Below are positions 3,071 through 32,560 of a stretch of DNA of 34,199 nt, one piece after another. Position 1 is the first letter of the stretch; each line of letters starts with the position of its first letter. Source of the DNA: Bacillota bacterium (GTDB lineage: Bacteria; Vulcanimicrobiota; JAMDEM01); assembly GCA_023486985.1 (NCBI GenBank), contig JAMDEM010000028.1, positions 1 through 34,199 of the forward strand. Direction: 5' to 3'. Made by a program: the position numbers and the translations under genes. The notes under the pieces were generated by a model. That model did not search any database and had not been told where the DNA came from. It saw nothing but the letters and a program-made list of their open reading frames with translations.

Positions 3071-4780
3071 CTATACCAAATATTGTCCGTCAAATATGAT
3101 AGGAGAATTCTGAGCTTTTTCCATACCGCCGGAAGCCTTCGTTTTAATAACAACATCCGCCGGGTCTTCCGTTATCTTTATTCCTTTTTCAGGATTCACA
3201 GGCGCAGGCTTGCCGTTTATCGTGGCAGATACTATTTCCGAGCCGTCTCCTGAAGACTGAACCTTTAACGAAGATATATTTCCAAAAGGAACAGGCGTAT
3301 TCATGTTTGCATAATTTAGTTGAGGATTCAAATTAGGTTTTACATATGTGCCGTCTCCGGGATAGTAATTAAGCCCGATAACTTTTTTCATCATCATTTC
3401 ACTGTAAAGGGAATTTGCCCATGAGAACCAGCCCCTGCTGTATTCGCCGGGGTTATCGGGATTTACGCCCTCATGCATGTAGTGAGTGCCTGCATCAAGA
3501 TTGTTAAGATACGTCTCCATCTTCTGTATTTCACCGGGATCATTTGAGGTAAGCGCCTGCATTGTTATTGCCAGGGGCCATACTCTTTTGCCGGGCGTAT
3601 GGGGGCTTCCCACTCCGGCTCCTTGAGTTCCTGAATAATAATATGGATTATCTTTGCTTAACACAAAATTGCGGGTATTTTTGTAAGTCGGGTCATTCGG
3701 CGAACAGAATTCCAGATAAGGAGCTGAAAGCAAGCTGGGCACATTTGCATCATCCATCAAATTTGCATTGCCGTTATCATCAACCTCGTATGCCCACATT
3801 TTGCCGTAAACAGGATGATTGTAGGTTACATATTTTTCAATGCCGGCTTTAATATTATTGCCGATGTCTTCGCATTCCTTTGCCCTCACGGGATCGTTCC
3901 AGATATTTAAATACATATCTTTAAGCTTGGGCATCGTGGAAGCAAGGAACATATTGGTTGGTATTAAATATGGATACTTTGTCTCATCATCACTGGGACG
4001 GTTGTTGCATTTAACCAACCCGGTGGGACCGGTTTTTTGCTTGATTAAATCAATGGCTTTATCAAAAGCTTTTTTAGCATCAAAGTCGCCTGACTGGCGC
4101 GCCCATGAATCATCACCGCTTACTTTGGTGTAAAGTGATGCAAGGCGAATCAGATATGCCACACCGTCCGGCTCGTACTTGCGCTCCCAAGGGGTGTAAT
4201 CGTCTTTCCACGAATTTACAAAAGGTGCATCCGGCTCGGAAGAGTTGAAATTTTTTATATGCCTTAAAATAGTTCCTTTGATTACTCTTTGCAGTTCGGG
4301 ATTATCCTTGCTCATATAAACATAAGGTTGTATCTGGGCGCATGAATCTCTCACCCACATGGCGGGAATATCGCCGGTTATGGTAAAAGTGGTGCCGTCC
4401 GGTTTTAAATTTACAGTTGTCTTCAGGGTGTTGGGAAGGCAATTCTTAAATGTTTCCTTCGCATAGGAGTCGGGAATATCAAAGCCTGCAGCAAAATTAT
4501 CAATCGTCTTCAGTCCATCCTGTGCCGCAGTTATTTTGCCGCCTGCCTGCTTCGCCTCCCCCGTTATTAAAGAGGGTTGGTGGGATTCTTTCTTCAGTCG
4601 GGAAATCATATTCATATCGGCAAGAAGAGCATCTTTTTTCCTGCTGGAGATTTCAACCCTGTCCTTCGAAACTGCCGGAGGATTGAGTTTCACAGAAGCA
4701 GTCTCAGAGGGGGCGATTTTATTCAGCTTCGCCTCGTTCCCCGAAAGGAAAGCTCCTCCCTGACCATCAATTTTTTCCAT
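3071..4780 (-). CDS. Glycoside hydrolase family 125 (metal-independent exo-alpha-1,6-mannosidase family, DUF1237) with a ~130-aa non-catalytic N-terminal leader
   Basis: The family signature ITGDIPAMWVRDSCAQIQPYV is present and the remainder has GH125-like length. An AGGAG Shine-Dalgarno sequence lies 9 nt before the ATG. The N-terminus (MEKIDGQGG...SKDRVEISSRKKDALL...) has no hydrophobic signal peptide. Confidence 0.8.
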   Translation of the reverse strand: MEKIDGQGGAFLSGNEAKLNKIAPSETASVKLNPPAVSKDRVEISSRKKDALLADMNMISRLKKESHQPSLITGEAKQAGGKITAAQDGLKTIDNFAAGFDIPDSYAKETFKNCLPNTLKTTVNLKPDGTTFTITGDIPAMWVRDSCAQIQPYVYMSKDNPELQRVIKGTILRHIKNFNSSEPDAPFVNSWKDDYTPWERKYEPDGVAYLIRLASLYTKVSGDDSWARQSGDFDAKKAFDKAIDLIKQKTGPTGLVKCNNRPSDDETKYPYLIPTNMFLASTMPKLKDMYLNIWNDPVRAKECEDIGNNIKAGIEKYVTYNHPVYGKMWAYEVDDNGNANLMDDANVPSLLSAPYLEFCSPNDPTYKNTRNFVLSKDNPYYYSGTQGAGVGSPHTPGKRVWPLAITMQALTSNDPGEIQKMETYLNNLDAGTHYMHEGVNPDNPGEYSRGWFSWANSLYSEMMMKKVIGLNYYPGDGTYVKPNLNPQLNYANMNTPVPFGNISSLKVQSSGDGSEIVSATINGKPAPVNPEKGIKITEDPADVVIKTKASGGMEKAQNSPIIFDGQYLV

Positions 4781-4799
4781 TACTTGCTACTCCTAATTT

Positions 4800-4838
4800 G
4801 TCATTGCGAGGTCACCGAAGGTGACCGTGGCACTCTCT
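4800..4838. repeat. Copy C (short form) of the GTCATTGCGAG repeat with a perfect hairpin, in the 60-bp GH130-GH125 spacer
   Basis: GTCATTGCGAG is at 4800-4810. The 7-bp stem ggtcacc (4810-4816) and ggtgacc (4820-4826) flank a gaa loop. A REP-like intra-operon hairpin is the likely role. Confidence 0.65.
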
Positions 4839-4840
4839 AA

Positions 4841-6067
4841 CTACGCGGCTTTTCCAAGCGCATTGAAAGTCTTGACGATACCTGCAGCTATCGGGCTCTG
4901 CATTGCAGGAGCAACCGCAGCAACTGCCAGTCCGATGTAGCGGTCCGCACCGCCAAAATAAATGTCAACCTTGCCGTTTTGAACCGTCATCCCCTCGGCG
5001 AAGACTACATTGTCAATGTATCCGTGCTTTTCCCAGTCCTGGGTGGGGGATAGTATTGGCTTATCGGTTCTTGCGATAATCTTTGTGGGATCATTCTTGT
5101 CGAAGAGCACTGCGCCGACGTTGTAATTCTTATGTTCCCCGCCGTCGCCTCCGTTGCTGTTATATATCATAAGGATTCCGTCCTTTGTATAGAAGGGCGG
5201 GGGTCCGGGCTCCACGAGGTTGCTGTCGAATTTGTCCCCTCTGGTCTTGATGACCGGATTCATAATCGGCGTCCAGTGGAGAAGGTCATCAGAAAAAGCC
5301 ATCCAGATGTTGGTGTCCCCGAAGTACATAACATAACGGTCCTTGAAAAGTCCGCTTTTCACCTTCTCGGGAAGAATTGCGCCGGACTTTGTCCAGCCTC
5401 CTGTTGCCGGGAAATCAGGGAATAACGGTCCGTGTTTTTGCCAGTTACGCAAGTCATTGGAAGTTGCCATGCACAGCCTTGCCTTATCGCCGTCATAGGC
5501 GGTGTAGGTCAGGTAATAGGTATCTTTAACTTTAATAAGGCGGGGGTCCTCTATGCCCTTTTTTTCGTAGTCATATTCAGGAACGATGATGGGTTTATCT
5601 TCTCTTTCAAAGTGAATGCCGTCTTTGCTGGTGGCAAGACCAATCCTGCCGGTGATTTGTCCCTGTGGCTCACTCTTGTCCTCGCCTCTATAGAGCATGT
5701 AAGTGACGCCGTTTTCGCGGATGGTTGCCATGTTATAAATATTTCGGGAATCAAAGCCGGTGTCACTGGGTTTCATAATGGGTTCTGACATCTTCTCGAA
5801 GGGTTTTAGTTCTAAATCTGCGGCTTCCCCCGGTCCTTTGGGGGTAATTTTGGAAACAAGGGAGTTAAGGACTTCCTTGTCATTATCCTGTGAGATTGAA
5901 AAGAGTTTTCTGGGATCGGAAATCAGCTTGAGGTCATCCCTCTTTTTCCCTATGGATACGGCATCCTTTGTGAATGCCGTATCCTTCCCAGAGGCTGATT
6001 CCGCCAGCCTGGAATTGCCGGATTCTTTTGGAGTGTAAATAGGCTGAGAAACATTAATCTTATCCAC
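4841..6067 (-). CDS. Glycoside hydrolase family 130 (beta-mannoside phosphorylase/hydrolase, DUF377) with a ~100-aa N-terminal leader
   Basis: The motifs GIEDPRLIKVKDTYYLTYTAYDG, ATSNDLRNWQKHGP, KSGAILPEK and AFSDDLLHWTP are typical of the GH130 five-bladed propeller. The start is a GTG at 6067 preceded by AAGGGGGAAA. The N-terminus (MDKINVSQPIY...TKDAVSIGKKRDDL) has no signal peptide. Confidence 0.8.
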   Translation of the reverse strand: MDKINVSQPIYTPKESGNSRLAESASGKDTAFTKDAVSIGKKRDDLKLISDPRKLFSISQDNDKEVLNSLVSKITPKGPGEAADLELKPFEKMSEPIMKPSDTGFDSRNIYNMATIRENGVTYMLYRGEDKSEPQGQITGRIGLATSKDGIHFEREDKPIIVPEYDYEKKGIEDPRLIKVKDTYYLTYTAYDGDKARLCMATSNDLRNWQKHGPLFPDFPATGGWTKSGAILPEKVKSGLFKDRYVMYFGDTNIWMAFSDDLLHWTPIMNPVIKTRGDKFDSNLVEPGPPPFYTKDGILMIYNSNGGDGGEHKNYNVGAVLFDKNDPTKIIARTDKPILSPTQDWEKHGYIDNVVFAEGMTVQNGKVDIYFGGADRYIGLAVAAVAPAMQSPIAAGIVKTFNALGKAA

Positions 6068-6308
6068 GTGTTTCCCCCTTACTTAAGCTAATATATAATA
6101 AACCTGTAATTATGTTCATGTTTATTTTATCATTATGCACATAATATTGTAAAGAAAAAATTGTTAACAAATTGTAAACAATTGGCTATATCCCGACATA
6201 TCCTTCGAGGACTTGTCAATAGGTTTGTAAAAGTCATTTAGGCGGCTTTCTATAGAGAGTTCATAGAATCCAATTGATTAAATTTTCGGGGGAATTTCAT
6301 ATTGCTAT

Positions 6309-6355
6309 TTACAAATACATAAAAATGCCTTATAATTGCTATTATGAATAGCAAT
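6309..6355 (+). promoter_or_regulatory. Sigma70-like promoter (TTACAA-N16-TATAAT) overlapping a perfect 9-bp inverted repeat that encloses the ATG of the downstream ATPase; implies a leaderless or near-leaderless mRNA
   Basis: TTACAA is at 6309-6314 and TATAAT at 6331-6336. The arm attgctatt (6335-6343), the ATG (6344-6346) and the arm aatagcaat (6347-6355) form a perfect palindrome. No Shine-Dalgarno sequence lies upstream. A third attgctatt occurs at 6301-6309. Confidence 0.4.
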
Positions 6356-7723
6356 ATAATTCAAGAACATAATCCTTGGTGGCGCCGCCCGGAGTTTATT
6401 CTGGAAGATAATTTTCTTGCAGAGCTGGAGAGGCAAAAGTATCCTTTTTACCACTCGTTATACCACAGCCTTCCTGTCAATAAAGACGGCATTCTAACTT
6501 TGAGAGGACCACGGCGCATTGGCAAAACAACCCTTTTAAAACTCTTGATCAAGCGCCTGCTTTTGGAAGAGAAGGTGGAGAAAGAAAATGCGTTGTTCTT
6601 TCCCTGCGACACGATAAGTGATTACAAAGATTTGGAAAATTTGTTAACTTCTTACTTAAATTATGTCCGTCCCAAAAGTCAGAAGCGGCTTTTTATTTTT
6701 TTGGACGAAATTTCTTTTGTTAAGGAGTGGCAAAGAGCTATAAAGCTGCTTGCAGATTCAGGAAAATTGAAGAACTCTTTGGTTTTAATCACGGGTTCAA
6801 ATGTTTTAGACCTTAAATATTCTGCGGAACGGCTGCCGGGCAGGCGGGGAGAAATTTTTCCATGGGATATCACTTTCTTGCCCTTAACCTTCCATGAATT
6901 TATCACTCTTTTAAAACCAGAATTTTTAACCGATCCTCTCCCCGCTTCTCTTGCTCTCCTGCCTCATTTTCAAAAACTGTTTACTGATTATCTTATCTGC
7001 GGCGGCTTTCCCGTCACCATCAATGAGTACTTTGCTAAAGGCTACATATCTACCCAGACTTACGAGATTTTTTTGGCATGGATTGAAGGCGACCTGCACA
7101 GGGTGGGAAAATCAGAAAACTTTACTTATCAAATAATGAAGCGTCTTTTTGTTCATTTAACCAGCGCAATAAGTTTTTATAAATTAAGCCGGGAATCAGG
7201 CATTGCATCTCATACTACAGTTGAAGAATACCTGGAAATTTTTGAAAAAATGTTTATCATTTGCCGCCTGCCGTTTTTTTCTCTTGAGCAGAAACAGGTG
7301 TTTTTCCGCAAGAACAGCAAGGTTTATTTTGCCGACCCCTTTATTTTTAATTGCTTAAAAGCCAGGACAGAGGGATTTTCCCAGAATGCTTTTGCTTATA
7401 CCAGGGACTTTATTAACAGGGCTGACAACCGGCCGTCCTTAGTAGAAAATACTGCATGCTCCCATCTTCAGAGAAATTTCTCTTCTTTGTATTTTGGCCG
7501 CGCTGGCAATGACAAGGAAATTGATTTTGTCGGCTTCAAAGAAAGCAAATACTCGTACTTTGAAATTAAATATCAGGAAAAGGTTAAGGCGGAAGAATTT
7601 TCATGGGCAAAGAAAATTCTCGGTCACAGCAGGTTAACAGTTTTATGCCGGAAAGATTATCTGAAGGGAGAACTTTCGCTTATTCCCGCAGAGATGTTCC
7701 TTGGCTATTTTCGAACCATTTAA
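6344..7723 (+). CDS. AAA+ ATPase of the COG1373 type (AAA_14 plus DUF4143), diverged paralogue of 1632..2969
   Basis: Walker A LTLRGPRRIGKTT, Walker B LFIFLDEIS and a C-terminal KEIDFVGF acidic motif. Confidence 0.8.
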   Translation: MNSNIIQEHNPWWRRPEFILEDNFLAELERQKYPFYHSLYHSLPVNKDGILTLRGPRRIGKTTLLKLLIKRLLLEEKVEKENALFFPCDTISDYKDLENLLTSYLNYVRPKSQKRLFIFLDEISFVKEWQRAIKLLADSGKLKNSLVLITGSNVLDLKYSAERLPGRRGEIFPWDITFLPLTFHEFITLLKPEFLTDPLPASLALLPHFQKLFTDYLICGGFPVTINEYFAKGYISTQTYEIFLAWIEGDLHRVGKSENFTYQIMKRLFVHLTSAISFYKLSRESGIASHTTVEEYLEIFEKMFIICRLPFFSLEQKQVFFRKNSKVYFADPFIFNCLKARTEGFSQNAFAYTRDFINRADNRPSLVENTACSHLQRNFSSLYFGRAGNDKEIDFVGFKESKYSYFEIKYQEKVKAEEFSWAKKILGHSRLTVLCRKDYLKGELSLIPAEMFLGYFRTI

Positions 7724-7859: not shown

Positions 7860-8361
7860 CGAATGGCGACAATCCAGGCGGAGCCGTAGATAGCGCATGA
7901 GAAAACAAACTTGTTTATAAATTCGACCCCTGCAAATCACTGGCTGCTTGTAGGGAAATGTCAAGATTTTTGAGCAAGGCAGGGAATACAAATAACCCCG
8001 AAGGGGCAAGTGCCACGGGCTATACACGTGGGTATCTACTTTCAAAAATTCTCGCACAGGCTCCTGCGAAAATGTAGGCTCAGGAAGAGGATTTCTTTCT
8101 ATTTTCTGGAATCGCTGAGTTACCAGATCTAATTAATTATTCCAACATTCTTGAAGCGGGCTTTTAAAATTCATTCCTTTATGCCAATTCTTTATAGGAC
8201 ATTCAGCAACTTCACAGATAGCAGTCAGATGGTTGATAATGGCATCGTGTGCAAATTCCATATTATTTTATAAAGGTTCCGAGTGCATTCGTCTTTGGGA
8301 TACAGAAACCGACCTTTATAATAAAGGGCTAAAAATGTATCATGAGCAAAGGAGAATAAAA

Positions 8362-8826
8362 ATGGATATTAAAAAGATGCAACAAGTTTTCTTTGATTCT
8401 AGTGCTTTAATAAAATATTACAAGAAGGATGAAAAGGGTTGTGATAAAGTTTGGAAAATTCTTAATTCCAAAAATAGAGGATTTTCTGTAACTTGGCTAA
8501 CTATTGCTGAAGTGATAAATGTCTTAAAGTGTAGGCTTAATGGTAAAGAATTAATTGAGGCTCTAGATCGTCTTATTGCTGATATAAGCGGCCAGAAATT
8601 TGCAATTTTTTCACCTGAATCTGGTAAAAGTATATTTGATGTCACTCGACAGGTAGAAGAATACAAAGAAAAATACAATATAGACCTAGTTGATGCTTAT
8701 AATTTGCACTTTATAGATTCCGAATTCAGAAAAAGAAAATATACACCGAAACCTTTAATTGTATGCAGTGATAAAAAACTCAACAAAGCTTTTGAGGAAC
8801 TTGGATGGGAAGTTTGCGACCCATAG
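8362..8826 (+). CDS. PIN-domain protein (VapC-like ribonuclease fold) with no recognisable cognate antitoxin gene
   Basis: ORF track 8233..8826, trimmed to the ATG at 8362, which follows AAAGGAG. The acidic residues sit in PIN-like positions (VFFDSSAL, TIAEV, LVDAY, VCSDKKL). Confidence 0.65.
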   Translation: MDIKKMQQVFFDSSALIKYYKKDEKGCDKVWKILNSKNRGFSVTWLTIAEVINVLKCRLNGKELIEALDRLIADISGQKFAIFSPESGKSIFDVTRQVEEYKEKYNIDLVDAYNLHFIDSEFRKRKYTPKPLIVCSDKKLNKAFEELGWEVCDP

Positions 8827-8956
8827 GAATATATTTAATGCATAGTTTTTTCTCTTTTTCTCGCCAATTTCTTGACACTTGCTTGAATCTGAAGAATTGA
8901 AGCAAAGGTTGTTAATAAGATTAGGAAATCAGGCAAAAAGTAAGGAGGAAGCCATT

Positions 8957-9592
8957 ATGCCCAAAAGTTACATCGATATTTTTGAAGCAATCATAGGTAA
9001 TGATATTTCTGCTGTAGGAGAATTCATTAGCACGGGAGCAAATGTTAATTTAAAAAATAAAGATGGTTTTACACCTTTGCACCAAGCTGTATATAGAGGA
9101 TATAAAGATATTGTAGAATTGCTTATCAGCAAAGGAGCAGATATCAATGCAGAGGGTAAGTGGGGCGGGACGGCATTGCACAAGGCGGCATGGAAAAGTT
9201 ACAAAGATATAGCAGCGCTTCTAATTTCTAAAGGTGCCGATGTCAATGCAAAAGCTTATGATGGCTCGACGCCTTTGCACTGGGCCGTAGTGTTTGGCAA
9301 TAAAGATATTGTGGAATTGCTTATTAGTAAAAGCGCAAATGTCAACGCGAGAGATGAATCTGGCCTGACACCTTTACAGTATGCCTCAGATGAAAAACAA
9401 AGAAATGTTATGGAATTTTTTATCATCAAAAATGAAGACGGCCGTACGGCATTGTTCCCTGCTGCAGTAACAGGACAAAAAGATATTGTGGAATTGCTTA
9501 TCAACAAAGGAGCAGATGTCAATGCAAAAGATGAAACTGGCTTGACACCTTTGTATTCTGGGGAAAAGAAGTGGTGGCAGTTCTGGAAGTAA
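8957..9592 (+). CDS. Ankyrin-repeat protein (about 5-6 ANK modules)
   Basis: ORF track 8879..9592, trimmed to the ATG at 8957 after AAGGAGG. The module G-x-TPLH-x-A...G-x-KDIVELLISKGADVNA recurs, and the DNA-level repeat aaagatattgt(a/g)gaattgcttat occurs near 9106, 9303 and 9480. Confidence 0.85.
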   Translation: MPKSYIDIFEAIIGNDISAVGEFISTGANVNLKNKDGFTPLHQAVYRGYKDIVELLISKGADINAEGKWGGTALHKAAWKSYKDIAALLISKGADVNAKAYDGSTPLHWAVVFGNKDIVELLISKSANVNARDESGLTPLQYASDEKQRNVMEFFIIKNEDGRTALFPAAVTGQKDIVELLINKGADVNAKDETGLTPLYSGEKKWWQFWK

Positions 9593-9746
9593 TATTTTGA
9601 TATTTCACTGGTTTTGTGGGCACACGGGAAGGGTGGAAATACCTCCATCAAAAAATAAAAAATTTTCTCTTGCCTTTTCGTATTGCTGTTCATATCCAGC
9701 AAAATTTCAAAGGTTACTCGCAGAGAATGCTCCTTTCAGCCTCTTC

Positions 9747-10135
9747 CTACAGAGTTTCCAATTTTATAACTGCATTGAAAATAACTTGATTCACGGTTTC
9801 TTCTGCTACAGTGATTTGGCTTACAATTTTTGCAAGCTGCGGATGCAGCCTGCATGCACCATTTTCCAGCAGAAGAAAATCTTTCGGAGAAAAAACGCAC
9901 TTTTGAAGAAATTGCAAGACCAATTGTTCCACTTTGGGACGCAGAGGCTCCATGAGGTCATAAACCAGAGCCACTCGGTTTGAGATAACAAGCATGAAGA
10001 TAATCAATGGTGGTGTCGAGACCTGCTGATACCGCAGCCATTAAAACCTGACTTTCAAGAACTCCATAAACATAATTTAAAATAGCATTTACAGGATGGG
10101 TGGCATGACCTCAAAGTTATAATAAATTGCAGCGA
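9747..10135 (-). pseudogene. cas1: cas1 relic: C-terminal third of Cas1, 5'-truncated and frameshifted
   Basis: ORF 9747..10007 reads ...NRVALVYDLMEPLRPKVEQLVLQFL...SPKDFLLLENGACRLHP... My translation of 10008-10130 in another frame reads GHATHPVNAILNYVYGVLESQVLMAAVSAGLDTTIDYLHA, followed shortly by a stop. Together these reproduce the Cas1 pattern P-x-NALLNY-x-Y...GLD...FLH...ALVYDLME-x-RP. A stop lies immediately upstream of GHATHP, and the N-terminal two thirds of the protein are absent. Confidence 0.65.
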
Positions 10136-10155
10136 AGAAGCAAACTCTTTAATAT

Positions 10156-10593
10156 TTACTTTCTTCGGTAACTCAAAATCTCTTTTGTTTTCCTGAGAAA
10201 TACGGTGGCGCTGTTAATCAATTTTTGAGCGCCATCTTCAGAGAAAGTGGACTCATAATCAGCGTTTTCTCTTAAAGCCATGGCAGTAAAGAAATCATCA
10301 CAAAGGCTTTTTTCCAGTTTGTTTGTATCCACAAATAGAGCTCTAACAGCAACTGCCAGGCAATAATGACTTTTTTCCCGTAAGCCCTGGGAATATAAGA
10401 GCGCTCTGGCTCCATGGAACATAGAATAATAAGCTTGAATAGTAGCCCATTTATGGTTTTTATTTTTAAAGCTTTCTCTGGCGCTTATAAGATCGTTTTC
10501 TGCCGAATCTATTTCCTTTGGGATAAGTCGTTTTCCCTGAGGAAAGCTTTTTATGCTATTTTTCTTCAGACATTTTTCATATTCCGGATCCAT
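10156..10593 (-). CDS. HEPN-domain protein (toxin partner of a HEPN-MNT module)
   Basis: 145 aa. The motifs AYYSMFHGARALL and LRENADYE resemble HEPN (PF05168). GGGAGGG lies before the ATG. The gene overlaps the upstream nucleotidyltransferase gene by 17 nt. Confidence 0.7.
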   Translation of the reverse strand: MDPEYEKCLKKNSIKSFPQGKRLIPKEIDSAENDLISARESFKNKNHKWATIQAYYSMFHGARALLYSQGLREKSHYCLAVAVRALFVDTNKLEKSLCDDFFTAMALRENADYESTFSEDGAQKLINSATVFLRKTKEILSYRRK

Positions 10594-11125
10594 CGCTTCC
10601 CTCCCATAAAATTATTCCTCTGTTTATTTGCTCAAAGAAAGCAGGTTCTTTTTTTTCAAGGTTCACATATTGCAAAGGAGTTTTTATAATTGGTTGGGTT
10701 TTTTCTCGCAGGGAACTGTTATGAAAAAATTTGAAAACAATTTCAGGGTGGTTGGTGAGGATAAAGATATCAAAGTCGCTTTCTTCTGTGTTAGTGCCTG
10801 AAGCAGCGCTTCCAAAAAGAATTATTTTTCTGCTGGCTTTCTTAATTTTTTCAAAAAGGGGAAACAAAGTGATTAAAGTTTGCAATATTTTAAATTGTCT
10901 TAAGAAGGGATTAGAAAGGTCTGTTCGATAAAACTTCATCCTTCCCCGTATTTCTTCTTCTACGAGTTTTGCTCTGGCAAGCTTTCTCATGGCATAATTT
11001 ATTCCAGAACGGCTTACGCCAGTGGCTTCCCGTATTTCTTTTTCCAGAAATTGCTTTTCTGGATGAAGAAGAAGAAAGGATAGAGCCTTTTGTTCGTTTG
11101 TTTTAAATAAGATATTTTTAATCAT
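10577..11125 (-). CDS. Minimal nucleotidyltransferase (MNT) fused to an N-terminal winged-helix DNA-binding domain (antitoxin/regulator of the HEPN-MNT module)
   Basis: The NTase motif is ILFGSAASGTNTEESDFDIFILT (G-S ... D-x-D). The N-terminal segment LEKEIREATGVSRSGINYAMRKLARAKLVEE is wHTH-like. The start is moved from the TTG at 11176 to the ATG at 11125 because the intervening 51 nt carry the promoter and operator repeats. Confidence 0.7.
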   Translation of the reverse strand: MIKNILFKTNEQKALSFLLLHPEKQFLEKEIREATGVSRSGINYAMRKLARAKLVEEEIRGRMKFYRTDLSNPFLRQFKILQTLITLFPLFEKIKKASRKIILFGSAASGTNTEESDFDIFILTNHPEIVFKFFHNSSLREKTQPIIKTPLQYVNLEKKEPAFFEQINRGIILWEGSDGSGI

Positions 11126-11132
11126 TTTAAAT

Positions 11133-11183
11133 CCAAAATTTTGGAATTGATTCCATTTTAATGGATTTGATTCCAAAAGTCAA
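11133..11183 (-). promoter_or_regulatory. Promoter (TTGACT-N17-TAAAAT) with overlapping operator repeats for the MNT-HEPN operon
   Basis: On the minus strand, -35 TTGACT is at 11183-11178 and -10 TAAAAT at 11160-11155 with a 17-nt spacer. Two 14-mers TGGAWTTGATTCCA lie at 11142-11155 and 11162-11175, 20 nt apart. A perfect 12-bp palindrome ccaaaattttgg lies at 11133-11144, just upstream of the ATG at 11125. Confidence 0.5.
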
Positions 11184-11227: not shown

Positions 11228-11263
11228 TTTGTATCCATTGAGGCAGTAAAGGGGGGGCGCAAA

Positions 11264-12991
11264 ATGGTTAAGAAAGACGGCGGAGGAGCTGTAAAGCATA
11301 TCTCAAAAATAGAGCCGGCGAAGCATGCATCCCAGACCCAGGCTAAACCATCAAGCTCATCATCTCACAAAGATACATCCACAAGCAGTACCACGCATAA
11401 AGATAATGTCAGTCTTTCCAGCCAGGCGGAGAAAGATGCCGCCCGCCAGCGCATAGATAATGAACATGATGAAGAATTAAAAAGACTGGATGAGGAAAAG
11501 CAGGCAAAAGAAAAGGCGCTGGAAGAGGAAAGAATAGCAAAAGAAAAAGCAATTGAAGAAGAGAAGCAGGCGCGCCTTAAGGCACTGGAGGAAGAGCAGA
11601 AGCAGAAGGAAACCGAACTTCAGGCACAGCGTCTTAATGAACAGGAAAAAGCGGCAAAAGAAGCGGCTTTGAAAGCCGAGATGGCTGCAAAGAAAAAGGC
11701 TCTTGAAGATGAGGTTGCCGGCAAGAAAAATGCCCTTGCCGGGGAAATTGCAGATAAGAAAGCCGCCATAGACGCCAAGTACCAGGCTAAGATTTCTGCC
11801 ATTGACGGACCCGCGCTTCCGCCGAACTTCAATGAAATGTCCCCCGAGGAGCAGTATAATTATCTTCATGATGTCTCAGTTGCCATGGCGGGCGGAGATG
11901 AAAGCCAGTGGAGAACCGGCGAAGACGAGTTGAATATCATCGGAATCCGCAGTTTTCAGAATGGACAGGCTGTACCGCCTGAAGGCAATGTTTATAATGA
12001 TACGATTTACGCCGTTCGCATGCATGACGGAAAGCCCGAAGTTTATGCTTTTCAGGGAAGCGTTGATGCAGGCGTGGTAAATAATCCCGGCTCCACCGGA
12101 TTCGGCTATGCAGACCCTAAAACAGGAAAGTACCTGGGATTTTCCGATCTTGCAGACGGCTTTTATCCCATAGGCACATGGACCAAAGGAGCAGTCCCGC
12201 ACAGCGGGCTGGGTCTACGCCAGAATGGAGATATAAAAATTAATGTTGACCTGAACAATGACGGTATTATCGAGGATAATGAGCGTCTTGGAGTAACTGA
12301 AGGAGCCGGGTGGGGAATACAGTTCCATCCGGGGGGCACGGGCGACCGTGTGGGGTTATGGTCGGCAGGCTGTCAGGTCATCAAGGGGGACCAGTGGGGA
12401 CTTTTCCAGAACCTGATAAGCGAGGATAAAAACAAGGATTTCGCCTACACCCTAGTTGACAGCGCAAACCTGCCGCCTGTTGACGCCAATCACAGAGCGG
12501 TTGGAGTGCCCAATACCCCGGTAGCCACAGGTTCGGGCGGAACGTCCATATCGGCGGGAAGTTCAGGAGCCGTCACCGGTACGACAGATGCAGGAGCGGT
12601 AACCTCCGGTGTTTCGTATCCTGTATATGCAGCTCCGCAGACAGGGTCTCCGCTGGGAGCCTCTTACACGGGAGGCGGTGTTAATGCGCCTTTCGGTCCT
12701 GATGCCGTTGATTCTGTGGAGACCGGCGCTAATATCGACCAACAGTTGCAGAGCCTATGCCAGGCGGCGACGCAGGAAATAATGGCGGCAAAAAAAGGCG
12801 GTTTTGCACAGGCGGGAGGAATGAGTCCTGCGGTCAGTGCCCTGTACTTTACATATGCGCAGGTGCTTCTGCAGCACTTGTCCATTAAGCCGGAAACAGA
12901 GCAAATGGTTGCCAATAGTCTTGCTATGGCGGGAATCAATGTCCAGCAGCTTAAACAGGTTATCTCCCAGAACGCAGGGAAGCCCATGTAA
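11264..12991 (+). CDS. Multidomain protein: FlgM-N-like leader, KE-rich coiled coil, YkuD-like (L,D-transpeptidase fold) catalytic motif, Gly/Ser/Thr/Ala-rich linker and a C-terminal helical region
   Basis: The leader is MVKKDGGGAV...HKDNVSLSSQAEKDA. A heptad-like E/K/A-rich segment spans about aa 60-180. The motif IQFHPGGTGDRVGLWSAGCQVI (His codon 12326-12328, Cys codon 12371-12373) gives H-x14-C with S-x-G-C, as in YkuD-type L,D-transpeptidases and related peptidoglycan effectors. There is no signal peptide. Confidence 0.55.
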   Translation: MVKKDGGGAVKHISKIEPAKHASQTQAKPSSSSSHKDTSTSSTTHKDNVSLSSQAEKDAARQRIDNEHDEELKRLDEEKQAKEKALEEERIAKEKAIEEEKQARLKALEEEQKQKETELQAQRLNEQEKAAKEAALKAEMAAKKKALEDEVAGKKNALAGEIADKKAAIDAKYQAKISAIDGPALPPNFNEMSPEEQYNYLHDVSVAMAGGDESQWRTGEDELNIIGIRSFQNGQAVPPEGNVYNDTIYAVRMHDGKPEVYAFQGSVDAGVVNNPGSTGFGYADPKTGKYLGFSDLADGFYPIGTWTKGAVPHSGLGLRQNGDIKINVDLNNDGIIEDNERLGVTEGAGWGIQFHPGGTGDRVGLWSAGCQVIKGDQWGLFQNLISEDKNKDFAYTLVDSANLPPVDANHRAVGVPNTPVATGSGGTSISAGSSGAVTGTTDAGAVTSGVSYPVYAAPQTGSPLGASYTGGGVNAPFGPDAVDSVETGANIDQQLQSLCQAATQEIMAAKKGGFAQAGGMSPAVSALYFTYAQVLLQHLSIKPETEQMVANSLAMAGINVQQLKQVISQNAGKPM

Positions 12992-13040: not shown

Positions 13041-13421
13041 TCAGCCCTTCCATATCTTTATATCATCCATGGGATAATGTCTTAAATTCAAAGTGTAAAA
13101 AGAAGCTTTAGTAAATTTAGCGGTAGCTGCAAGCAGGGAGTCCCCAAGCTGCAACCCATGACTTTTACGGAATCTGCGCAGGTAAAATCCTGCAATCTTT
13201 GATATCTCGTCGTCTATGGGAATGCATTGCATGGTTTGAAAAAGGCGGTAAGTCTTTTCCTCCTCACCCCTGCGCATTCCCTGAAAAATTTCCGCCATTG
13301 TTACAGGAGAGTAAAGGAAAGTATGCCCTTCTTTATATAAATTCTCAAAAGACTTTAAAACCGCGGAATTGCCTCTTAATGCTTCAATAAGAACATCAGT
13401 ATCGATAAGGAATTCGCTCAT
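13041..13421 (-). CDS. vapC: VapC-family PIN-domain toxin
   Basis: The N-terminus MSEFLIDTDVLIEAL is typical of VapC, with further acidic residues in PIN positions. An ATGA overlap joins it to the upstream antitoxin gene. Confidence 0.8.
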   Translation of the reverse strand: MSEFLIDTDVLIEALRGNSAVLKSFENLYKEGHTFLYSPVTMAEIFQGMRRGEEEKTYRLFQTMQCIPIDDEISKIAGFYLRRFRKSHGLQLGDSLLAATAKFTKASFYTLNLRHYPMDDIKIWKG

Positions 13422-13687
13422 CTGCGGGAAAGCCTTTCCAAACGCTTATCCTCACGGAGGCTCTTTAAATAATCTTCAGTCTTTCCCAAATCCTGTCTGT
13501 TCTTCCAGATTCCTGCCACGGTATTTAAGGCATCCAGGAAACTTTCTCCTTTTTTCCCTGCATAGACCTTGTCAACAGCCTCCCGGATTAACTGTGCCAT
13601 CGTAACTTTGTTTTTTCGGCTTAATATTTGCAGGATTTGCCATTCATCGTTCGATAAATATATTTGCGTCCTCTTCAAGGAATTCAC
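13418..13687 (-). CDS. Ribbon-helix-helix (CopG/VapB-like) antitoxin
   Basis: KRTQIYLSNDEWQILQILSRKNKVTMAQLIREAVDKVY fits the RHH pattern (beta strand then two helices). A 4-nt overlap joins it to vapC. The real start may be the TTG at 13678, preceded by GAGGTGA, rather than the GTG at 13687. Confidence 0.7.
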   Translation of the reverse strand: MNSLKRTQIYLSNDEWQILQILSRKNKVTMAQLIREAVDKVYAGKKGESFLDALNTVAGIWKNRQDLGKTEDYLKSLREDKRLERLSRR

Positions 13688-16599: not shown

Positions 16600-17166
16600 A
16601 TGAAAAAATCACTTGGAGCAAAGACTCTAGCTTATCCTGCGCCCGTGTGGGTGGTTGGGACATACGATAAAGAAGGAAAGCCGAATATGATGACAGCCGC
16701 ATGGGGAGGAGTTTGCTGTTCTTCGCCGCCGTGCATTTCTGTCTCTTTAAGGAAAGCAACATACACCTATGATAATATAGTGCAAAGAAAAGCATTCACT
16801 ATAAATGTGCCTTCCGAAAAATTTGCCAATGAAGTGGACTACATTGGTATAGCATCGGGCAGGGATGTTGACAAGTTTTCAGAAACCGGTCTTACTGCGG
16901 TAAAAAGCGATGCGGTGGATGCGCCCCTGGTAAAAGAATTCCCCCTGGTCATTGAATGCAAACTTCTGCAAACAAATGAAATCGGGCTGCACACTCAATT
17001 TATCGGCGAAATCGTGGATGTGAAAGCTGATGAATCCGTGCTTGACGACGGGGGGCATCCGCAGATGGAAAAGATAAAGCCTTTTGTGTATGATACCGGA
17101 ACAAGATTATATTATGGAATCGGGCAATGTCTTGGAAAAGCTTTTTCCATGGGAAAGAAGAAATAG
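16600..17166 (+). CDS. Flavin reductase-like FMN-binding split-barrel protein (flavoredoxin family)
   Basis: [59 protein letters not shown] matches the Flavin_Reduct (PF01613) pattern. GGGAGG lies before the ATG. Confidence 0.8.
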
Positions 17167-17227
17167 CCTGAAGAGTACAGGGCGCAGCAGCGCATGGAAT
17201 AATACGATAAATAGCGAAAGCAGGAAC

Positions 17228-18292
17228 ATGATAAACCATTCAAGATTTTCAATGATGCATAAGCTGGCGTCATTGCTTGTTATTATGCTTTTACTGCTTG
17301 GCATGGGTTGCGGGAATAACCCTGTCAGCAGCATTGGAATCCCTCCGATAAATGCACTTGCATCAGGTGACGGAATCACCATCACCGGCCAGCCGGGTGC
17401 GCTGCCTCCAGGCGTGGCTCTTACTATTACCGCCCTGACCCAGGCACAGGCGCAGGCAGCCGCAGCACTTGCCGGCAATCAAATATTTGTTGCCGCCGGC
17501 GACTTTGGACCTGACGGCACAACGTTTTATGCTCCGGTAACGATAAACTTCCCATTACCTAATCAGCTGGCACCCGGAACAAGACTGCCCTTTTACATGC
17601 TCCAGAATAATGCCTGGGTTAATACCGGTACCGTAGCCATTGTAGGCAGCGACGGACTTACTGCCAGTGCACAGGTGACCCACTTTACAAAGTACATCCT
17701 CTTCCTTGATGATTCCTGGGTAAAGGTATCTTTCGGCGGAAACACACTCATTTCCAAGAGTGGCGGCATACCTTTAACTGCTTTAAATAACCCTATTGTG
17801 CTTGTTTCGGGGAAAACTACCGATGAAACTGTAATTGCGAAGGTCATGGAAGTCAACAATATGAGCAGGGCTGATGCAGTTTATTTTTTGCGGTCCTATG
17901 ATACTTCAGGGGATAAAGTGGTTCAGGTTCTGAGATTAACGGCAGGGGTTATAGTTACCCGTTACTGGCCAAATGATCCTGCCGGAAAGCTCGGACGCTG
18001 GTTTAATGTTATTGACAGCACCACACTATATTTACCTGATAGAGCCAGGCAGTATTATGCCCTTCCGAATTCCAATACGGCATTGAATGTTACCCAGTAC
18101 CTGCTCAAGCCAGGTGCTACAGTGGTTTACGGTGTCTGTGCGGACATGACATGGAGCCCGACCTTTGGACCTTATGCCACAGGGGGAGGCTACCAGATTT
18201 ATGTTTATAGTGCAACAACATGGGACGGACACGCCGCACATTTAAATCCTGATGTCGTGGAAATACAGACGGAATTAAGGTACACGGAGTGA
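17228..18292 (+). CDS. Exported (probable lipo)protein with a C-terminal TNT-like (NAD+ glycohydrolase toxin, PF14021-like) domain
   Basis: ORF track 17084..18292, trimmed to the ATG at 17228, which gives MINHSRFSMMHKLASLLVIMLLLLGMGCGNN (signal peptide plus Cys). The C-terminus reads TRYWPNDPAGKLGRWFNV...RARQYYALP...VTQYLLKPGATVVYG...TFGPYATGGGYQIYV. It follows the TNT/DUF4237 pattern R-Y-G...G-R-F...R-x-LP...Y-x-V-x-KP...G...FGQPGGG-x-Q. Confidence 0.45.
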   Translation: MINHSRFSMMHKLASLLVIMLLLLGMGCGNNPVSSIGIPPINALASGDGITITGQPGALPPGVALTITALTQAQAQAAAALAGNQIFVAAGDFGPDGTTFYAPVTINFPLPNQLAPGTRLPFYMLQNNAWVNTGTVAIVGSDGLTASAQVTHFTKYILFLDDSWVKVSFGGNTLISKSGGIPLTALNNPIVLVSGKTTDETVIAKVMEVNNMSRADAVYFLRSYDTSGDKVVQVLRLTAGVIVTRYWPNDPAGKLGRWFNVIDSTTLYLPDRARQYYALPNSNTALNVTQYLLKPGATVVYGVCADMTWSPTFGPYATGGGYQIYVYSATTWDGHAAHLNPDVVEIQTELRYTE

Positions 18293-19559: not shown

Positions 19560-20240
19560 ATGACAAAGATAAAGTTGATAAAAGGAACCATGGCTGTTCT
19601 GATGATTGTTTTTCTCGGTATCGGGTTTGCCTTAGCCCAGGGCAATTATCCGGCAAAGATGAAGGAGGGCCAGACATATAAATCATTTTTTGTCGACCTT
19701 AACAAAGACGGGCATAAGGAGAAAATCGCTGTTAAGGTCTATGGAGTTTCCGGTTATGAGTGGTTCGCCCAGATTGTGGTTTTTGATTCATCCGGAAAAG
19801 TTATCTGGAAAGGCCCGGCAGACAAGAACAGGGCTAACCCGCTTGTTTTCGGCAATTTTGACTATGGTTCCGCCCTTCCTGAGGTTGTCCGGGATATGGA
19901 CGACGATGGCAGTGTTGAGATGATTGCTACAACACCTGTCTCGGATGTTAGGCCCCAGCCGTTTCGTCTTTTCCGCTGGAACGGAAAGAAGTTTGTTTAT
20001 GTTTTTATTAAGACACTGATGGAAAAACCGGCCGGTTCAGGAGTTTTTGTCTGGTCAAAGCCGGGACCGCCTGAAGGCTGCTGGATAACGGAATTAAGAG
20101 AAATTAAAGAATATAAAAATTTTATTGCCGAAGTGTTTGAGTATAAAAAAGAAAAGACGAGGGGCGGCAGTGCCGAGGTAGCCTCTTCAGCGGCTGGATT
20201 TAAAGTAGTGAAATGGATTAAGCCTCTGAAATCATTTTGA
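19560..20240 (+). CDS. Secreted hypothetical protein with FG-GAP/VCBS-like Asp-rich loops
   Basis: The signal peptide is MTKIKLIKGTMAVLMIVFLGIGFALAQG. Calcium-loop-like DLNKDGHKEKI and RDMDDDGSVEMI segments are present. AGGAGG lies upstream of the ATG. Confidence 0.55.
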   Translation: MTKIKLIKGTMAVLMIVFLGIGFALAQGNYPAKMKEGQTYKSFFVDLNKDGHKEKIAVKVYGVSGYEWFAQIVVFDSSGKVIWKGPADKNRANPLVFGNFDYGSALPEVVRDMDDDGSVEMIATTPVSDVRPQPFRLFRWNGKKFVYVFIKTLMEKPAGSGVFVWSKPGPPEGCWITELREIKEYKNFIAEVFEYKKEKTRGGSAEVASSAAGFKVVKWIKPLKSF

Positions 20241-21882: not shown

Positions 21883-21955
21883 ATTTTGCGATTGAAAACT
21901 CTGCAGCCTTGCTGCGGAGTGTCGTGCCGCAAAACAAGCTTTGCTTATTTTTTTT
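21883..21955 (+). repeat. Structured 70-nt element, copy 2 (first copy at 7790-7859), ending in a T-run; possible intrinsic terminator between convergent genes
   Basis: attttgcgattgaaaactctgcagccttgctgcggagtgtcgtgccgcaaaacaagctttgcttatttttttt. It has the same two nested stems as copy 1. Its 3' T-run overlaps the last codons and stop (21945-21947) of the TolC-like gene on the other strand. Confidence 0.75.
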
Positions 21956-23381
21956 CTTGCACCGGGTTTTGCTGCTGCTGAGTTGAAATCACGGGGAAAC
22001 CTGGGAGTCCAATCGCCTGTACAAGCCTGGCTTCTGCAACTTTTCTGTCATAAAGTGCCAGAACGTAATCATTTCTTGCGTTGTTTAAATAATCCCTGGC
22101 ACTGTTTAACTCTATTATGGTGCTTACGCCCTGTTTGTATCTTTTGTATGCCAGTGTGAAGTTTAATACCGCCGATTTAACCTGTCTTGTTGCAGCTTCA
22201 GTCCTGTCTTTGGCTCCCTGTATATCGGAATAAGCAGAATCAATGTTTCTGATAAGAGTAAGTTTCTGGATTTCCTTTTGCTGGTAGAACTGTCCGGCAA
22301 GAGATTTTTGCTCATCTGCCTGGGACTTTGCGGCTTTGCCGGCTGACAGTGGAATGGTAAGAGTAGCGCCAATGTTCCATGCGACGCTGTTTGGAATTAT
22401 CTGGCCCAGAACGCCGTATGAAGCCTGTGCAGCTATAGTGGGCAGGACCTGGTTTTCAAATGCCTTTGCAAGGGCCATGGCTCCTTTTTCCTGAGCCAAA
22501 AAAGTAAGAAGTGACGGATGTGATTTTTCCATCTGGCTGACGGCTTCATTTTTATCGGGCAGAACCATTTCCTGTTCAAGAATATTTTCCAGCTGCCTGT
22601 CCGTTATTTCTGATACATCAATTCCCACTGCCTTTGCCAGTTTGACTTTGGCATTTAGTAATTCTGTTTTTACTCTTGCAAGTTGAACCTGTGACCGTTC
22701 TGTTTCAATTTCCGCCTGAGTTACATCAATTTTTGACTTTGCTCCCGCCTGATAAAACCCGTTTGCCACTCTCAGGTTCTCTATCGCCTTTGCCAGCCCG
22801 TCTTCCTGTATTATCAGCAGCCATTCTTCAAAAACAACTCCATAGTATGTTTCTCTCACTTCATCCACTTTGTCAATCCATGTTGACTTTAAATTAAGAA
22901 GGGCGGCCATAAGATTTTCCCTTGCGGAATTCAGTTTCTCTGCTCTTTGTTTTGAATCCCATAAAGTATAGCTGGCATTAAGCTGGCTTTGAGCGATAGA
23001 CGGGATGGGATTTGCCGGCGTGACTTTTTGATAAGTATCATTTACAGTAACATTAATTGTTGGAATGTACAGTGCATATACCTGCTGAAGCCTTGCTTCC
23101 TGTGCATCCACTGCAGCTCTCCTAAAAAGGATGTCAGGATGCTTCATAAAAGCAGTCTGGAGGCATTCATCAAGGGAAAGCAATGGACCGGCGCGTTTTT
23201 TGGGCGGAGGGAGGAATGGCTCCTGTATTTCAGGGATGGGAGTTAATTTTGGAGAGGGGGACGGCTTTGATGAATTATCAGCAGCCGGCGCTTTTCCAGG
23301 CTTGCTGAAGCACAGGACAGTCCCGATTAAAAAAACGGCTATAAGTATTAAAAAGAACCTGATAGTCTTCAAATCCGTCAC
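21945..23381 (-). CDS. TolC-family outer membrane efflux protein (OEP)
   Basis: ORF track 21945..23522, trimmed to the GTG at 23381. That start follows AGGAGAGGAG and forms a GTGA overlap with the RND pump stop. A signal-anchor-like N-terminus (IRFFLILIAVFLIGTVLCF) is followed by duplicated OEP repeats. Confidence 0.8.
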   Translation of the reverse strand: MTDLKTIRFFLILIAVFLIGTVLCFSKPGKAPAADNSSKPSPSPKLTPIPEIQEPFLPPPKKRAGPLLSLDECLQTAFMKHPDILFRRAAVDAQEARLQQVYALYIPTINVTVNDTYQKVTPANPIPSIAQSQLNASYTLWDSKQRAEKLNSARENLMAALLNLKSTWIDKVDEVRETYYGVVFEEWLLIIQEDGLAKAIENLRVANGFYQAGAKSKIDVTQAEIETERSQVQLARVKTELLNAKVKLAKAVGIDVSEITDRQLENILEQEMVLPDKNEAVSQMEKSHPSLLTFLAQEKGAMALAKAFENQVLPTIAAQASYGVLGQIIPNSVAWNIGATLTIPLSAGKAAKSQADEQKSLAGQFYQQKEIQKLTLIRNIDSAYSDIQGAKDRTEAATRQVKSAVLNFTLAYKRYKQGVSTIIELNSARDYLNNARNDYVLALYDRKVAEARLVQAIGLPGFPVISTQQQQNPVQEKK

Positions 23382-26503: not shown

Positions 26504-26505
26504 GG

Positions 26506-27795: not shown

Positions 27796-27903
27796 TTTTA
27801 AATAACTTTCTTAAAGTAATTTTTAGTGTTTTTCTATTCCCGTGAATTTATTTCCTTGTTAAGCAAGTAATCTGGACAAAATCAAGAACATGGAAAAGAG
27901 CAG

Positions 27904-32300: not shown

Positions 32301-32549
32301 GGTGCTGTTGGAAGACATGTAAATCATGTGATCTGCCCCGTTAATTTGACTTTCAAGCGGGATGGCAATAGACTGTTCCACCGTAGAGGCATTGGCGCCC
32401 GGGTAGTTAACTGCAACCTGGATAGTAGGCGGGGTGATTTCGGGAAACTGGGCAACAGGCAGTACAAGAGCGCTTAGCCCTCCTGCTATAATAATCACGA
32501 GGGCTATAACAACGGCAAAGACAGGGTGATGGATAAAAAATCTTGCCAT
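29373..32549 (-). CDS. RND multidrug efflux permease (AcrB/MexB-like, HAE1), operon 1
   Basis: 1058 aa with [35 protein letters not shown] and an AcrB-like layout. Confidence 0.9.
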
Positions 32550-32560
32550 TAATTTTCTCC

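Follow-up and report, generated by a model that had tools for sequence, protein, structure and literature searches.

A two-block, non-hydrophobic leader as a candidate stand-in for signal peptides on hydrolases of Xenobiia-type Eremiobacterota

Three proteins encoded on contig JAMDEM010000028.1 (assembly GCA_023486985.1; 34,199 nucleotides (nt), analysed whole and referred to below as the window) begin with an extension that is not hydrophobic and is built from two short conserved blocks. They are a GH125 enzyme, a GH130 enzyme and a protein of 575 amino acids (aa). The extension, or leader, is translated, conserved and modular, replaces signal peptides, and coexists with Sec signal peptides. 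On balance, we lean towards a reading in which all three N-termini represent a single modular leader, specific to the lineage of Xenobiia-type Eremiobacterota, that acts as a non-hydrophobic stand-in for the Sec signal peptide on extracytoplasmic-type hydrolases, with a role in their export or targeting. In such a scheme, the leader would address mannosidases, a protease, a nucleotidase and a phospholipase D (PLD) to an export or targeting route that operates without a hydrophobic signal peptide. No description of such a leader was found in Pfam, NCBIfam or the searchable literature, the last of which contains no paper joining FlgM, a secretion signal and a glycoside hydrolase, and none naming 'Xenobiia'; this agrees with the remark of the initial annotation of this DNA that a modular FlgM-like leader on glycoside hydrolases appeared to be undescribed.

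The GH130 gene lies directly upstream of the GH125 gene in the same orientation (Table 1), and the N-termini translated from all three genes match those quoted initially exactly. The catalytic assignments are clear: the GH125 domain is a full-length match to Pfam PF06824 (E 1e-110; 371 bits against a gathering score of 23.4), and the GH130 domain matches PF04041 (E 4e-65; 220 bits against 26), with an AlphaFold2 model that is beta-rich and has a predicted local distance difference test score (pLDDT) above 90, consistent with the five-bladed propeller. Each gene has a strong Shine-Dalgarno sequence 6–10 nt ahead of its start codon and in-frame stops 3–15 codons upstream of it, and the next possible downstream start occurs only at codon 30 (GH125), 93 (GH130) or 136 (575-aa protein). 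Mis-called start codons were ruled out on these grounds. In the two conserved blocks of the leader, codon differences between orthologues comprise 8–13 synonymous versus 8–16 nonsynonymous changes (13 and 16, respectively, for the GH125 leader compared with that of L002); synonymous changes are thus common, which argues for constraint at the protein level. Together, these features bear out the early suggestion that the leaders are likely translated.

Table 1. Positions of the three leader-bearing genes and their elements within the window
Feature	Position	Strand	Description
GH125 gene	3071..4780	-	569 aa: leader, linker, GH125 catalytic domain
GH125 leader	4583..4780	-	aa 1-66, MEKIDGQG ... 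KDRVEISSRKKDALLADMNMISRLKKES
GH125 D-x-V-x-I-S block	4631..4666	-	aa 39-50, KDRVEISSRKKD
GH125 Shine-Dalgarno AGGAG	4790..4794	-	upstream sequence
GH130 gene	4841..6067	-	408 aa, GTG start: leader, linker helix, GH130 beta-propeller
GH130 leader	5918..6067	-	aa 1-50, MDKINVSQPIYTPKES ... TKDAVSIGKKRDDLKLIS
GH130 D-x-V-x-I-G block	5933..5968	-	aa 34-45, KDAVSIGKKRDD
GH130 Shine-Dalgarno AGGGGG	6074..6079	-	upstream sequence
575-aa protein gene	11264..12991	+	translation; AlphaFold2 model
575-aa protein leader	11264..11419	+	aa 1-52, MVKKDGGGAVKH, serine/threonine-rich spacer, HKDNVSLS
575-aa protein D-x-V-x-L-S block	11399..11434	+	aa 46-57, KDNVSLSSQAEK
575-aa gene Shine-Dalgarno AGGGGGGG	11250..11257	+	upstream sequence

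Across all the families in which it was found, the leader spans 40–70 non-hydrophobic residues. The first block begins at the initiator methionine and follows the pattern M-x(0-3)-[IK]-[DEK]-[KR]-[IV]-[GS], the trio in the window being of the type M-x-[IK]-[DK]-x-[IVG]. The second, D-x-V-x-[LIV]-[STG], is located 30–75 residues downstream of the first, and at residues 35–50 in the window trio. Between them lies a polar spacer of 25 to 75 residues that is free in both length and composition. Within each family the arrangement is retained over considerable divergence. In GH125, the orthologues P0002-P0005, of 66–70 % identity, retain M-x-K-I-D-G-x-G-E-P ... D-[RQ]-V-x-[IL]-S ... R-L-K-x-E, with M1, K3, I4, D5, G6, G8, D40, V42, S45 and R61-L62-K63 invariant in their alignment (A1). 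For GH130, orthologues from 77 % down to approximately 48 % identity keep M-[DI]-[DK]-K-I ... [TD]-D-x-V-[ST]-[ILV]-G-x-[KR]-K (P0122-P0126, P0133-P0135, P0137, P0139 and P0161), with D35 and G40 nearly invariant (A2). The family of the 575-aa protein (the 575 family) retains M-[SI]-I-[IDN], the serine/threonine-rich spacer and D-x-V-x-[LV]-[ST]-[DE]-x-A-x-K, for which the alignment consensus is D-x-V-x-L-S-D-x-A-x-K (A3). The common N-terminal leader first noticed on three proteins is therefore conserved within each family and, as outlined below, has a wider distribution than was originally described.

Structural predictions indicate that the leader is probably disordered. In AlphaFold2 models built from family alignments, pLDDT falls below 50 at residues 1–51 of the 575-aa protein and 1–49 of GH130, and a long helix begins at residue 53 of the former, immediately after its DNVSLS block. 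Over residues 2–31, P, Q, K, E, A and I are over-represented in the leaders and L, V, F, Y, W and C under-represented, and the maximum Kyte-Doolittle hydropathy of the GH125 leader is 0.7. The initial view of these N-termini as disordered and devoid of a signal peptide is consistent with both the low hydropathy and, for GH130 and the 575-aa protein, the low pLDDT.

Comparison with close relatives reveals that the leader stands where these bear a Sec signal peptide, and its function is thus most likely the same in kind. Measured as the maximum Kyte-Doolittle mean of 11 residues over residues 1–60, hydropathy reaches 0.2–0.8 in leader forms versus 2.2–4.0 in signal-peptide orthologues. Amongst GH125 relatives, those at 55–65 % identity harbour classic Sec signal peptides (P0006-P0008, P0010 and P0012-P0017), as do GH130 relatives at the position of the leader (P0130-P0132, of 65–68 % identity, and P0176); the mature parts of the leader and signal-peptide forms align from the same residue. 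When the mature GH130 domains were placed on a neighbour-joining tree, the leader forms made up three clades that are interleaved with signal-peptide forms. Two of these have signal-peptide sisters (P0121-6 beside P0130 and P0131, and P0161 beside P0176), and the third is sister to forms without an N-terminal extension; as the tree carries no bootstrap values, the exact number of swaps between leader and signal peptide is uncertain. The GH130-GH125 gene pair is found again in L028, where the GH125 enzyme has a signal peptide, and in L027 a GH130 gene with a signal peptide adjoins one for a leader-bearing PD40 propeller protein, so both types of N-terminus coexist in related genomes. Normal signal peptides and lipoboxes likewise occur on the leader-bearing contigs L002 and L010-L012, which marks the leader as a second class of N-terminus and not as a lineage-wide oddity of signal peptides.

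The leader and Sec (type I/II) signal peptides are thus alike in standing at the extreme N-terminus of the same enzymes and in being interchangeable amongst close relatives. The leader differs from them in its length, which is two- to threefold greater, in its predicted disorder, and in having neither a hydrophobic h-region nor an A-x-A or lipobox site; no hydrophobic stretch of 7–15 residues was found in the first 30–40 residues of the leader forms. Other known N-terminal signals were also considered and rejected for the three leaders. The twin-arginine (Tat) signal was ruled out, as there is no RR motif or hydrophobic stretch; a double-glycine leader of the bacteriocin type was dismissed given that GG occurs at residues 6–9 with no conserved hydrophobic pattern before it; and a type VII LXG or WXG domain was discounted since there is no helical N-terminal domain.

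The distribution of the leader was assessed using approximately 440 kb of related sequence fetched around the three families (L001-L028). It is present on at least eight unrelated families in Xenobiia/Eremiobacterota contigs, i.e. the window trio and at least five more. Peptidase_S8 proteins carry it in L010 and L017 (MDRIGPGS ... SDKVYLDD); their catalytic domain starts only at residue 162, leaving approximately 85 residues between the two, which places the leader at the pre-sequence position of a pre-pro-subtilase. Examples on 5'-nucleotidase/Metallophos proteins read MDIGRVDQ ... QDSVQISA, MDIGRLNQ ... EDSVELSA and MHIERTGL (L011, L013 and L014), and those on PLD proteins (PLDc_2; L012, L014, L004 and L024) include MIELLGSK ... 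EEHVELSP, MMDPIGTR ... AESVELSP and MIIDGNSP ... PVDRAEIG. The PD40 propeller protein of L027 begins MMEKINAS ... PSDTMRLE, fusions of the 575-family domain to a C39-like domain also bear the leader (L006, L007 and L020), and a Peptidase_C11 protein of L001 is possibly a further example. When 36 leaders were aligned using MAFFT, the N-terminal block and the D-x-V-x-L block each fell into one register throughout.

Several of these genes are found close together. In L012 (1651-11866), L013 and L014 (2845-11722), leader genes are clustered: they comprise a 5'-nucleotidase gene, a PLD gene beside open reading frames (ORFs) of 111 aa, a gene for a 303-aa protein with a weak anthrax-lethal-factor-like match (E 0.002), and a 575-family gene, and the cluster is adjoined by a gene for a NADase_transloc protein with a signal peptide. 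The whole looks like an effector or toxin island. L024 (6965-13215) contains an uninterrupted row made up of a leader-bearing PLD gene, an ORF of 113 aa, a 575-family gene and a GH130 gene that likewise has the leader, so that the 575-family and GH130 genes are direct neighbours in another genome. A Gly/Ala-rich, membrane-spanning-like segment separates leader and enzyme domain in three proteins (L012 4450-6273, - strand; L014 4691-6523, - strand; L011 3608-5530, + strand), from which it follows that the leader may also occur on membrane-anchored proteins with a cytoplasmic N-terminus. The contig of the leader-bearing PD40 protein additionally encodes a 223-aa SLT lytic transglycosylase with a Gln/Ala-rich N-terminus and no signal peptide (L027 6252-6923, + strand); such transglycosylases often accompany envelope-spanning machines.

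Certain observations weigh against a common leader with an export or targeting role, the first of which is that, judged from sequence, the similarity between families is modest and statistically marginal. Using hhalign, the three family leader alignments match each other with P=6e-4 (the GH125 block versus that of GH130), 0.02 and 0.27, the D-x-V block being aligned every time. The hidden Markov model (HMM) of the GH125 leader scores GH130 at E=3.2, and a single-family leader HMM run against the six frames of the window gave no match to another family. The mutual similarity that was first claimed is centred on the D-x-V block and is marginal as regards profile statistics. In a leave-one-family-out HMM search of 825 ORFs (3,480 candidate N-termini), first place amongst about 790 other ORFs went to the left-out family in the case of GH125 (E 7.6e-4), S8 (0.015), PLD (0.096) and 5'-nucleotidase (0.21), with GH130 no higher than seventh (E 13) and the 575 family absent from the top seven matches listed. 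A combined leader profile run against 1.84 billion representative proteins returned only P0133, a member of its own training set; this null is uninformative because so short a pattern holds less information than a search of so large a library requires. Also on this side of the argument, the contig sample was gathered via the three families themselves, so that frequencies within it are biased; disorder is a prediction from low pLDDT and not a measurement; enzymes of the GH130 and GH125 families commonly start without an N-terminal extension, and these are presumably cytoplasmic, meaning that a cytoplasmic location is not absurd for these two families; and no export machinery was identified in the roughly 440 kb of annotated flanks, exit from the cytoplasm being something that we infer.

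The second block, in the form D-x-[VIL]-x-[LIV]-[STG], was counted past residue 120 of 371 proteins to give a background frequency of 0.00046 per position, equivalent to P=0.036 per 80-residue stretch. It is present within residues 20–110 of 4 of the 28 window proteins, three of which are the leader proteins, and peaks at residues 41–100 in the locus-biased sample. The uniqueness of the stricter motif proposed initially is no test, since its definition came post hoc. Grounds for assuming a common element lie instead jointly in the two-block layout, the position at Met1, the missing hydrophobic core and the replacement of signal peptides, and in no single E-value. That there is no common element at all, and that three disordered N-termini share motifs by chance or composition or stem from mis-called starts, would fit with the shortness of the motifs, the weak hhalign P-values, the GH130 score of the GH125-leader HMM and the lack of new members amongst representative proteins. 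This explanation is already disfavoured, and highly improbable, given conservation of the leader within each family, recurrence of the layout on at least eight families, the first rank of the left-out family in four cases, the consistent location of the leader at the signal-peptide position, and starts supported by Shine-Dalgarno sequences, upstream stops and synonymous substitutions.

A more serious rival to an export or targeting role is that the leader is a disordered extension acting within the cytoplasm, as a regulatory, tethering or degradation tag or as a FlgM-like partner-binding peptide, and that the enzymes bearing it are cytoplasmic descendants of secreted ancestors. The many GH130 and GH125 homologues without an extension, the sister relationship of one GH130 leader clade to such forms, and the lack of an export apparatus in the annotated flanks all accord with this. 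So too does the presence of the leader before a membrane-spanning segment (the PLD proteins of L012 and L014, L011 3608-5530 and L025 450-1325), a layout also seen in membrane-anchored anti-sigma factors, whose N-terminus is inside. We nonetheless regard a purely cytoplasmic role as unlikely. The cargo consists mostly of enzyme types usually found outside the cytoplasm (subtilase, 5'-nucleotidase, PLD, and mannosidases whose nearest relatives have signal peptides), and the leader of the subtilase lies at the pre-sequence position, some 85 residues ahead of the catalytic domain. Moreover, repeated swaps between leader and signal peptide amongst close relatives are hard to explain if the two perform unrelated jobs, and for partner binding the sigma-binding C-terminal half of FlgM is missing.

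With regard to FlgM itself, the leader resembles the start of this protein loosely; it is not filed as a member of the FlgM family, and any homology is putative and weakly supported. Pfam FlgM (PF04316), the profile against which a scan had been proposed, has no match to any of the 36 leaders at E-values up to 10. NCBIfam TIGR03824 (FlgM) is, however, the family matched by the greatest number of leaders (8 of 36), with 12–18 bits against a cut-off of 40.75 and a best E of 0.0039. The five of these matches that were inspected are all serine/threonine-rich leaders of the 575 family, so that composition may contribute to their scores, and there is no match for the GH125, GH130, S8, 5'-nucleotidase or PLD leaders. 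Nor was FlgM retrieved when the alignments of the three leaders were run as profiles against PDB sequences. The matches to TIGR03824 span profile positions 2–72 of 98, ending at 56–72, which upholds the early claim that the sigma-28-binding half is missing: the C-terminal helices (the G-x-Y-x-V-D region) are absent, and the leader is instead followed by a linker and then a catalytic domain or a coiled coil. Just one other match relates to type III secretion, that of the inner rod protein PrgJ (NF011853) to aa 17–81 of GH130 in its leader and linker (E 0.001-0.004, with 0.0012 at 18.8 bits; cut-off 144), and we ascribe it to chance.

The similarity to FlgM is more apparent at the level of the second block. 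A Bacillus subtilis FlgM sequence matches the PDB FlgM chains 9wsf_B and 1rp3_B, its block DKIEISSQAKEMQ aligning with their ESVQISETAQNMQ and DKVTLSKIAQELS. From this alignment, D-x-V-x-L-S-x-x-A is a real conserved block of FlgM that is common to the leaders, with the counterparts DKVTLSKIAQ (1rp3_B), ESVQISETAQ (9wsf_B) and DKIEISSQAK (the B. subtilis protein). It appears in nearly all 36 leaders, but is a short motif that does not define the FlgM family alone. Using BLASTP, the GH125 leader matches the B. subtilis block QDKIEISSQAKE with an E-value of 0.007 over 12 residues. In FlgM this block opens the sigma-28-binding helices (1rp3 structure), and it is not known to act as the export signal. 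The leader starts MKINEIVG, MSIIDKIG and MIDRADS resemble those of FlgM and flagellar subunits. Overall, FlgM and the leaders have in common a disordered, polar N-terminus with a start of the M-x-I-[DN] type, and a D-x-V-x-L-S-x-x-A block 30–50 residues in that opens a helix (for the leaders, in the model of the 575-aa protein only). The leaders differ in having no sigma-28-binding helices, no profile match above threshold and a spacer of 25 to 75 residues, and in being fused to proteins of about 380–830 aa, whereas FlgM is a free protein of 90–110 aa. Nor do the leader genes stand amongst flagellar genes, none of which were found in the window or the annotated flanks. Of the 'FlgM-like' label, then, the shared D-x-V-x-L-S block holds, whilst membership at profile level does not.

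These similarities raise the question of whether, within an export role, the leader is derived from the N-terminal half of FlgM, or imitates it, and routes enzymes through a flagellar or flagellum-derived type III gate. Besides the shared block, the TIGR03824 matches and the FlgM-like starts, a disordered, Leu-poor N-terminus fits with type III signals; the unstructured, non-hydrophobic N-terminal 20–30 residues of type III substrates are present in the leaders, although this trait is generic to disordered regions. Precedent exists in FlgM fusions of Salmonella and Escherichia coli that transport foreign cargo by way of the flagellar apparatus (PMC3372961, PMC3595227) and in the Cia proteins of Campylobacter, non-flagellar proteins that the flagellar system exports by N-terminal signals (PMC2764114), which by analogy would make a flagellar route a feasible mechanism. 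In these systems, as with the leader, a modular, non-hydrophobic N-terminal signal of an uncleaved type precedes non-flagellar cargo. Natural flagellar-export signals of the Cia type, by contrast, have no conserved motif and serve few virulence proteins, the leader having two recognisable blocks on many hydrolase families and no flagellar apparatus linked to it. Within the phylum, Ca. Eudoremicrobiaceae, the family beside Ca. Xenobiaceae, is predicted to be motile, with flgG and fliI annotated and flagellar genes expressed (PMC9259500 and supplements), whereas Vulcanimicrobium (class Eremiobacteriia), the only cultured member, has no flagella (PMC9758169). The Pfam lists of the annotated flanks contain no flagellar, injectisome, contractile-injection or type VII gene, with the exception of a weak FlgT_N match in L023. 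Taking this together with FlgM scores far below cut-off and confined, where inspected, to serine/threonine-rich leaders, the families and searches that gave no FlgM match, and the sigma-28-binding location of the block in FlgM, we consider the flagellar gate a doubtful proposition, albeit one that could account for the shared block.

A further alternative is that the leader is no general secretion signal but a tag by which a specialised delivery system, for example a contractile injection system or one of the other systems that secrete effectors, loads its cargo or recognises its effectors. Cargo of the Photorhabdus virulence cassette has disordered N-terminal packaging signals, for which we know of no report of conserved sequence blocks. 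Like these, the leader is a disordered N-terminus of approximately 50 residues without a hydrophobic core on unrelated enzymes or toxins. Several leader proteins do appear effector-like and are clustered: the PLD and 111-aa ORFs, the lethal-factor-like protein, NADase_transloc and the 575-family gene occur together in L012-L014, and PLD has a 113-aa neighbour in L024. Unlike the Photorhabdus signals, however, the leaders have no injection-system genes nearby, with no sheath, tube, baseplate, VgrG or EssC-type gene in any annotated flank, and their cargo includes mannosidases and a 5'-nucleotidase that look suited to nutrient scavenging and not toxin-like. A dedicated effector tag is therefore rather improbable.

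Returning to an export or targeting role in general, it can be suggested, tentatively, that the Xenobiia-type Eremiobacterota secrete hydrolases by a second general route, with the two-block FlgM-like leader as its address tag. Such a tag might be read by a repurposed flagellar-type III gate or by undescribed machinery, and would constitute a natural, motif-defined secretion signal, independent of signal peptides, that is evolutionarily swappable with those of Sec. Non-hydrophobic secretion signals, including those of type III systems and the cargo tags of injection systems, are known for having no motifs and for being difficult to predict. A leader with two conserved blocks, present on many enzyme families and alternating with signal peptides amongst close relatives, would differ in being a non-Sec tag readable from sequence. 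Predictors of the SignalP type and metagenome annotation probably call leader-bearing mannosidases, proteases, nucleotidases and phospholipases cytoplasmic, and the range of extracellular enzymes in this widespread, uncultured lineage would then be underestimated. The leader could also be used as a handle for finding co-occurring machinery. Should the flagellar link be true, it would represent natural reuse of a FlgM-type leader for enzyme secretion, much as engineers have built artificially, and could serve as a portable secretion tag.

The 575-aa protein, which has no Pfam or NCBIfam match, merits separate description. Its AlphaFold2 model comprises the leader, a coiled coil of approximately 130 residues, a beta-rich domain (aa 186-400), a disordered linker and a C-terminal helical bundle. 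The central domain is confidently modelled and contains the invariant residues H355 and S367-A368-G369-C370-Q371. Foldseek against the PDB returned coiled-coil matches only (E at least 0.23), and phmmer with the central domain against the same database yielded nothing relevant. The 'peptidoglycan-active' label given to this protein initially thus finds no backing in Pfam, NCBIfam, PDB sequences or Foldseek; H-x(n)-S-A-G-C is YkuD-like only by eye, and peptidoglycan activity would be a guess. The central domain is also found in other arrangements, with an N-terminal LysM replacing the leader in P0257, a C-terminal PF11790 domain in P0260, and a C39-like peptidase domain inserted after the leader in P0263; the LysM of P0257 hints at a cell-wall context. 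In L025 (5710-11707), a T2SSF (PilC/GspF) gene and several genes of the prepilin type immediately precede a 575-family gene (P0259), in a locus that is probably a type IV pilus cluster.

The NCBI source label of the contig is a metagenome-assembled genome (MAG) of 'Firmicutes bacterium', which is probably wrong. The family of the 575-aa protein has only 26 members amongst 5.8 billion clustered proteins, and these are named Candidatus Eremiobacteraeota, Candidatus Xenobiia bacterium LiM19 or Vulcanimicrobiota, apart from a few generic MAG labels; close GH130 relatives are likewise named Eremiobacteraeota, Xenobiia or Vulcanimicrobiota. On the strength of these names, the source was treated as Eremiobacterota, class Xenobiia or near. 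Ordinary Sec N-termini are encoded in the window, in the form of a lipoprotein with a lipobox (17084-18292) and a protein with a signal peptide (19560-20240), as are outer-membrane efflux components, indicating a diderm organism with ordinary use of Sec.

The surroundings of the leader genes are varied. Two paralogous AAA_14/DUF4143 ATPase genes, at 1632-2969 and 6344-7723 (both + strand), lie one on each side of the GH130-GH125 pair and might mark a mobile or defence-type insertion around the glycosidases. Between the leader genes, and again beyond the 575-aa protein gene (8233-11176 and 13041-13687), there are dense small genes of the toxin-antitoxin or defence type, encoding a PIN protein, an ankyrin-repeat protein, a HEPN and nucleotidyltransferase pair, and a second PIN protein with an 89-aa upstream partner. 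Finally, the region at 21945-33883 (- strand) contains ORFs of 1041 and 1058 aa, a gene for an outer-membrane efflux protein (OEP; PF02321; 21945-23522) and three ORFs of 429–490 aa, which together look like two tandem efflux operons of the resistance-nodulation-division type, the OEP gene being the one scanned.

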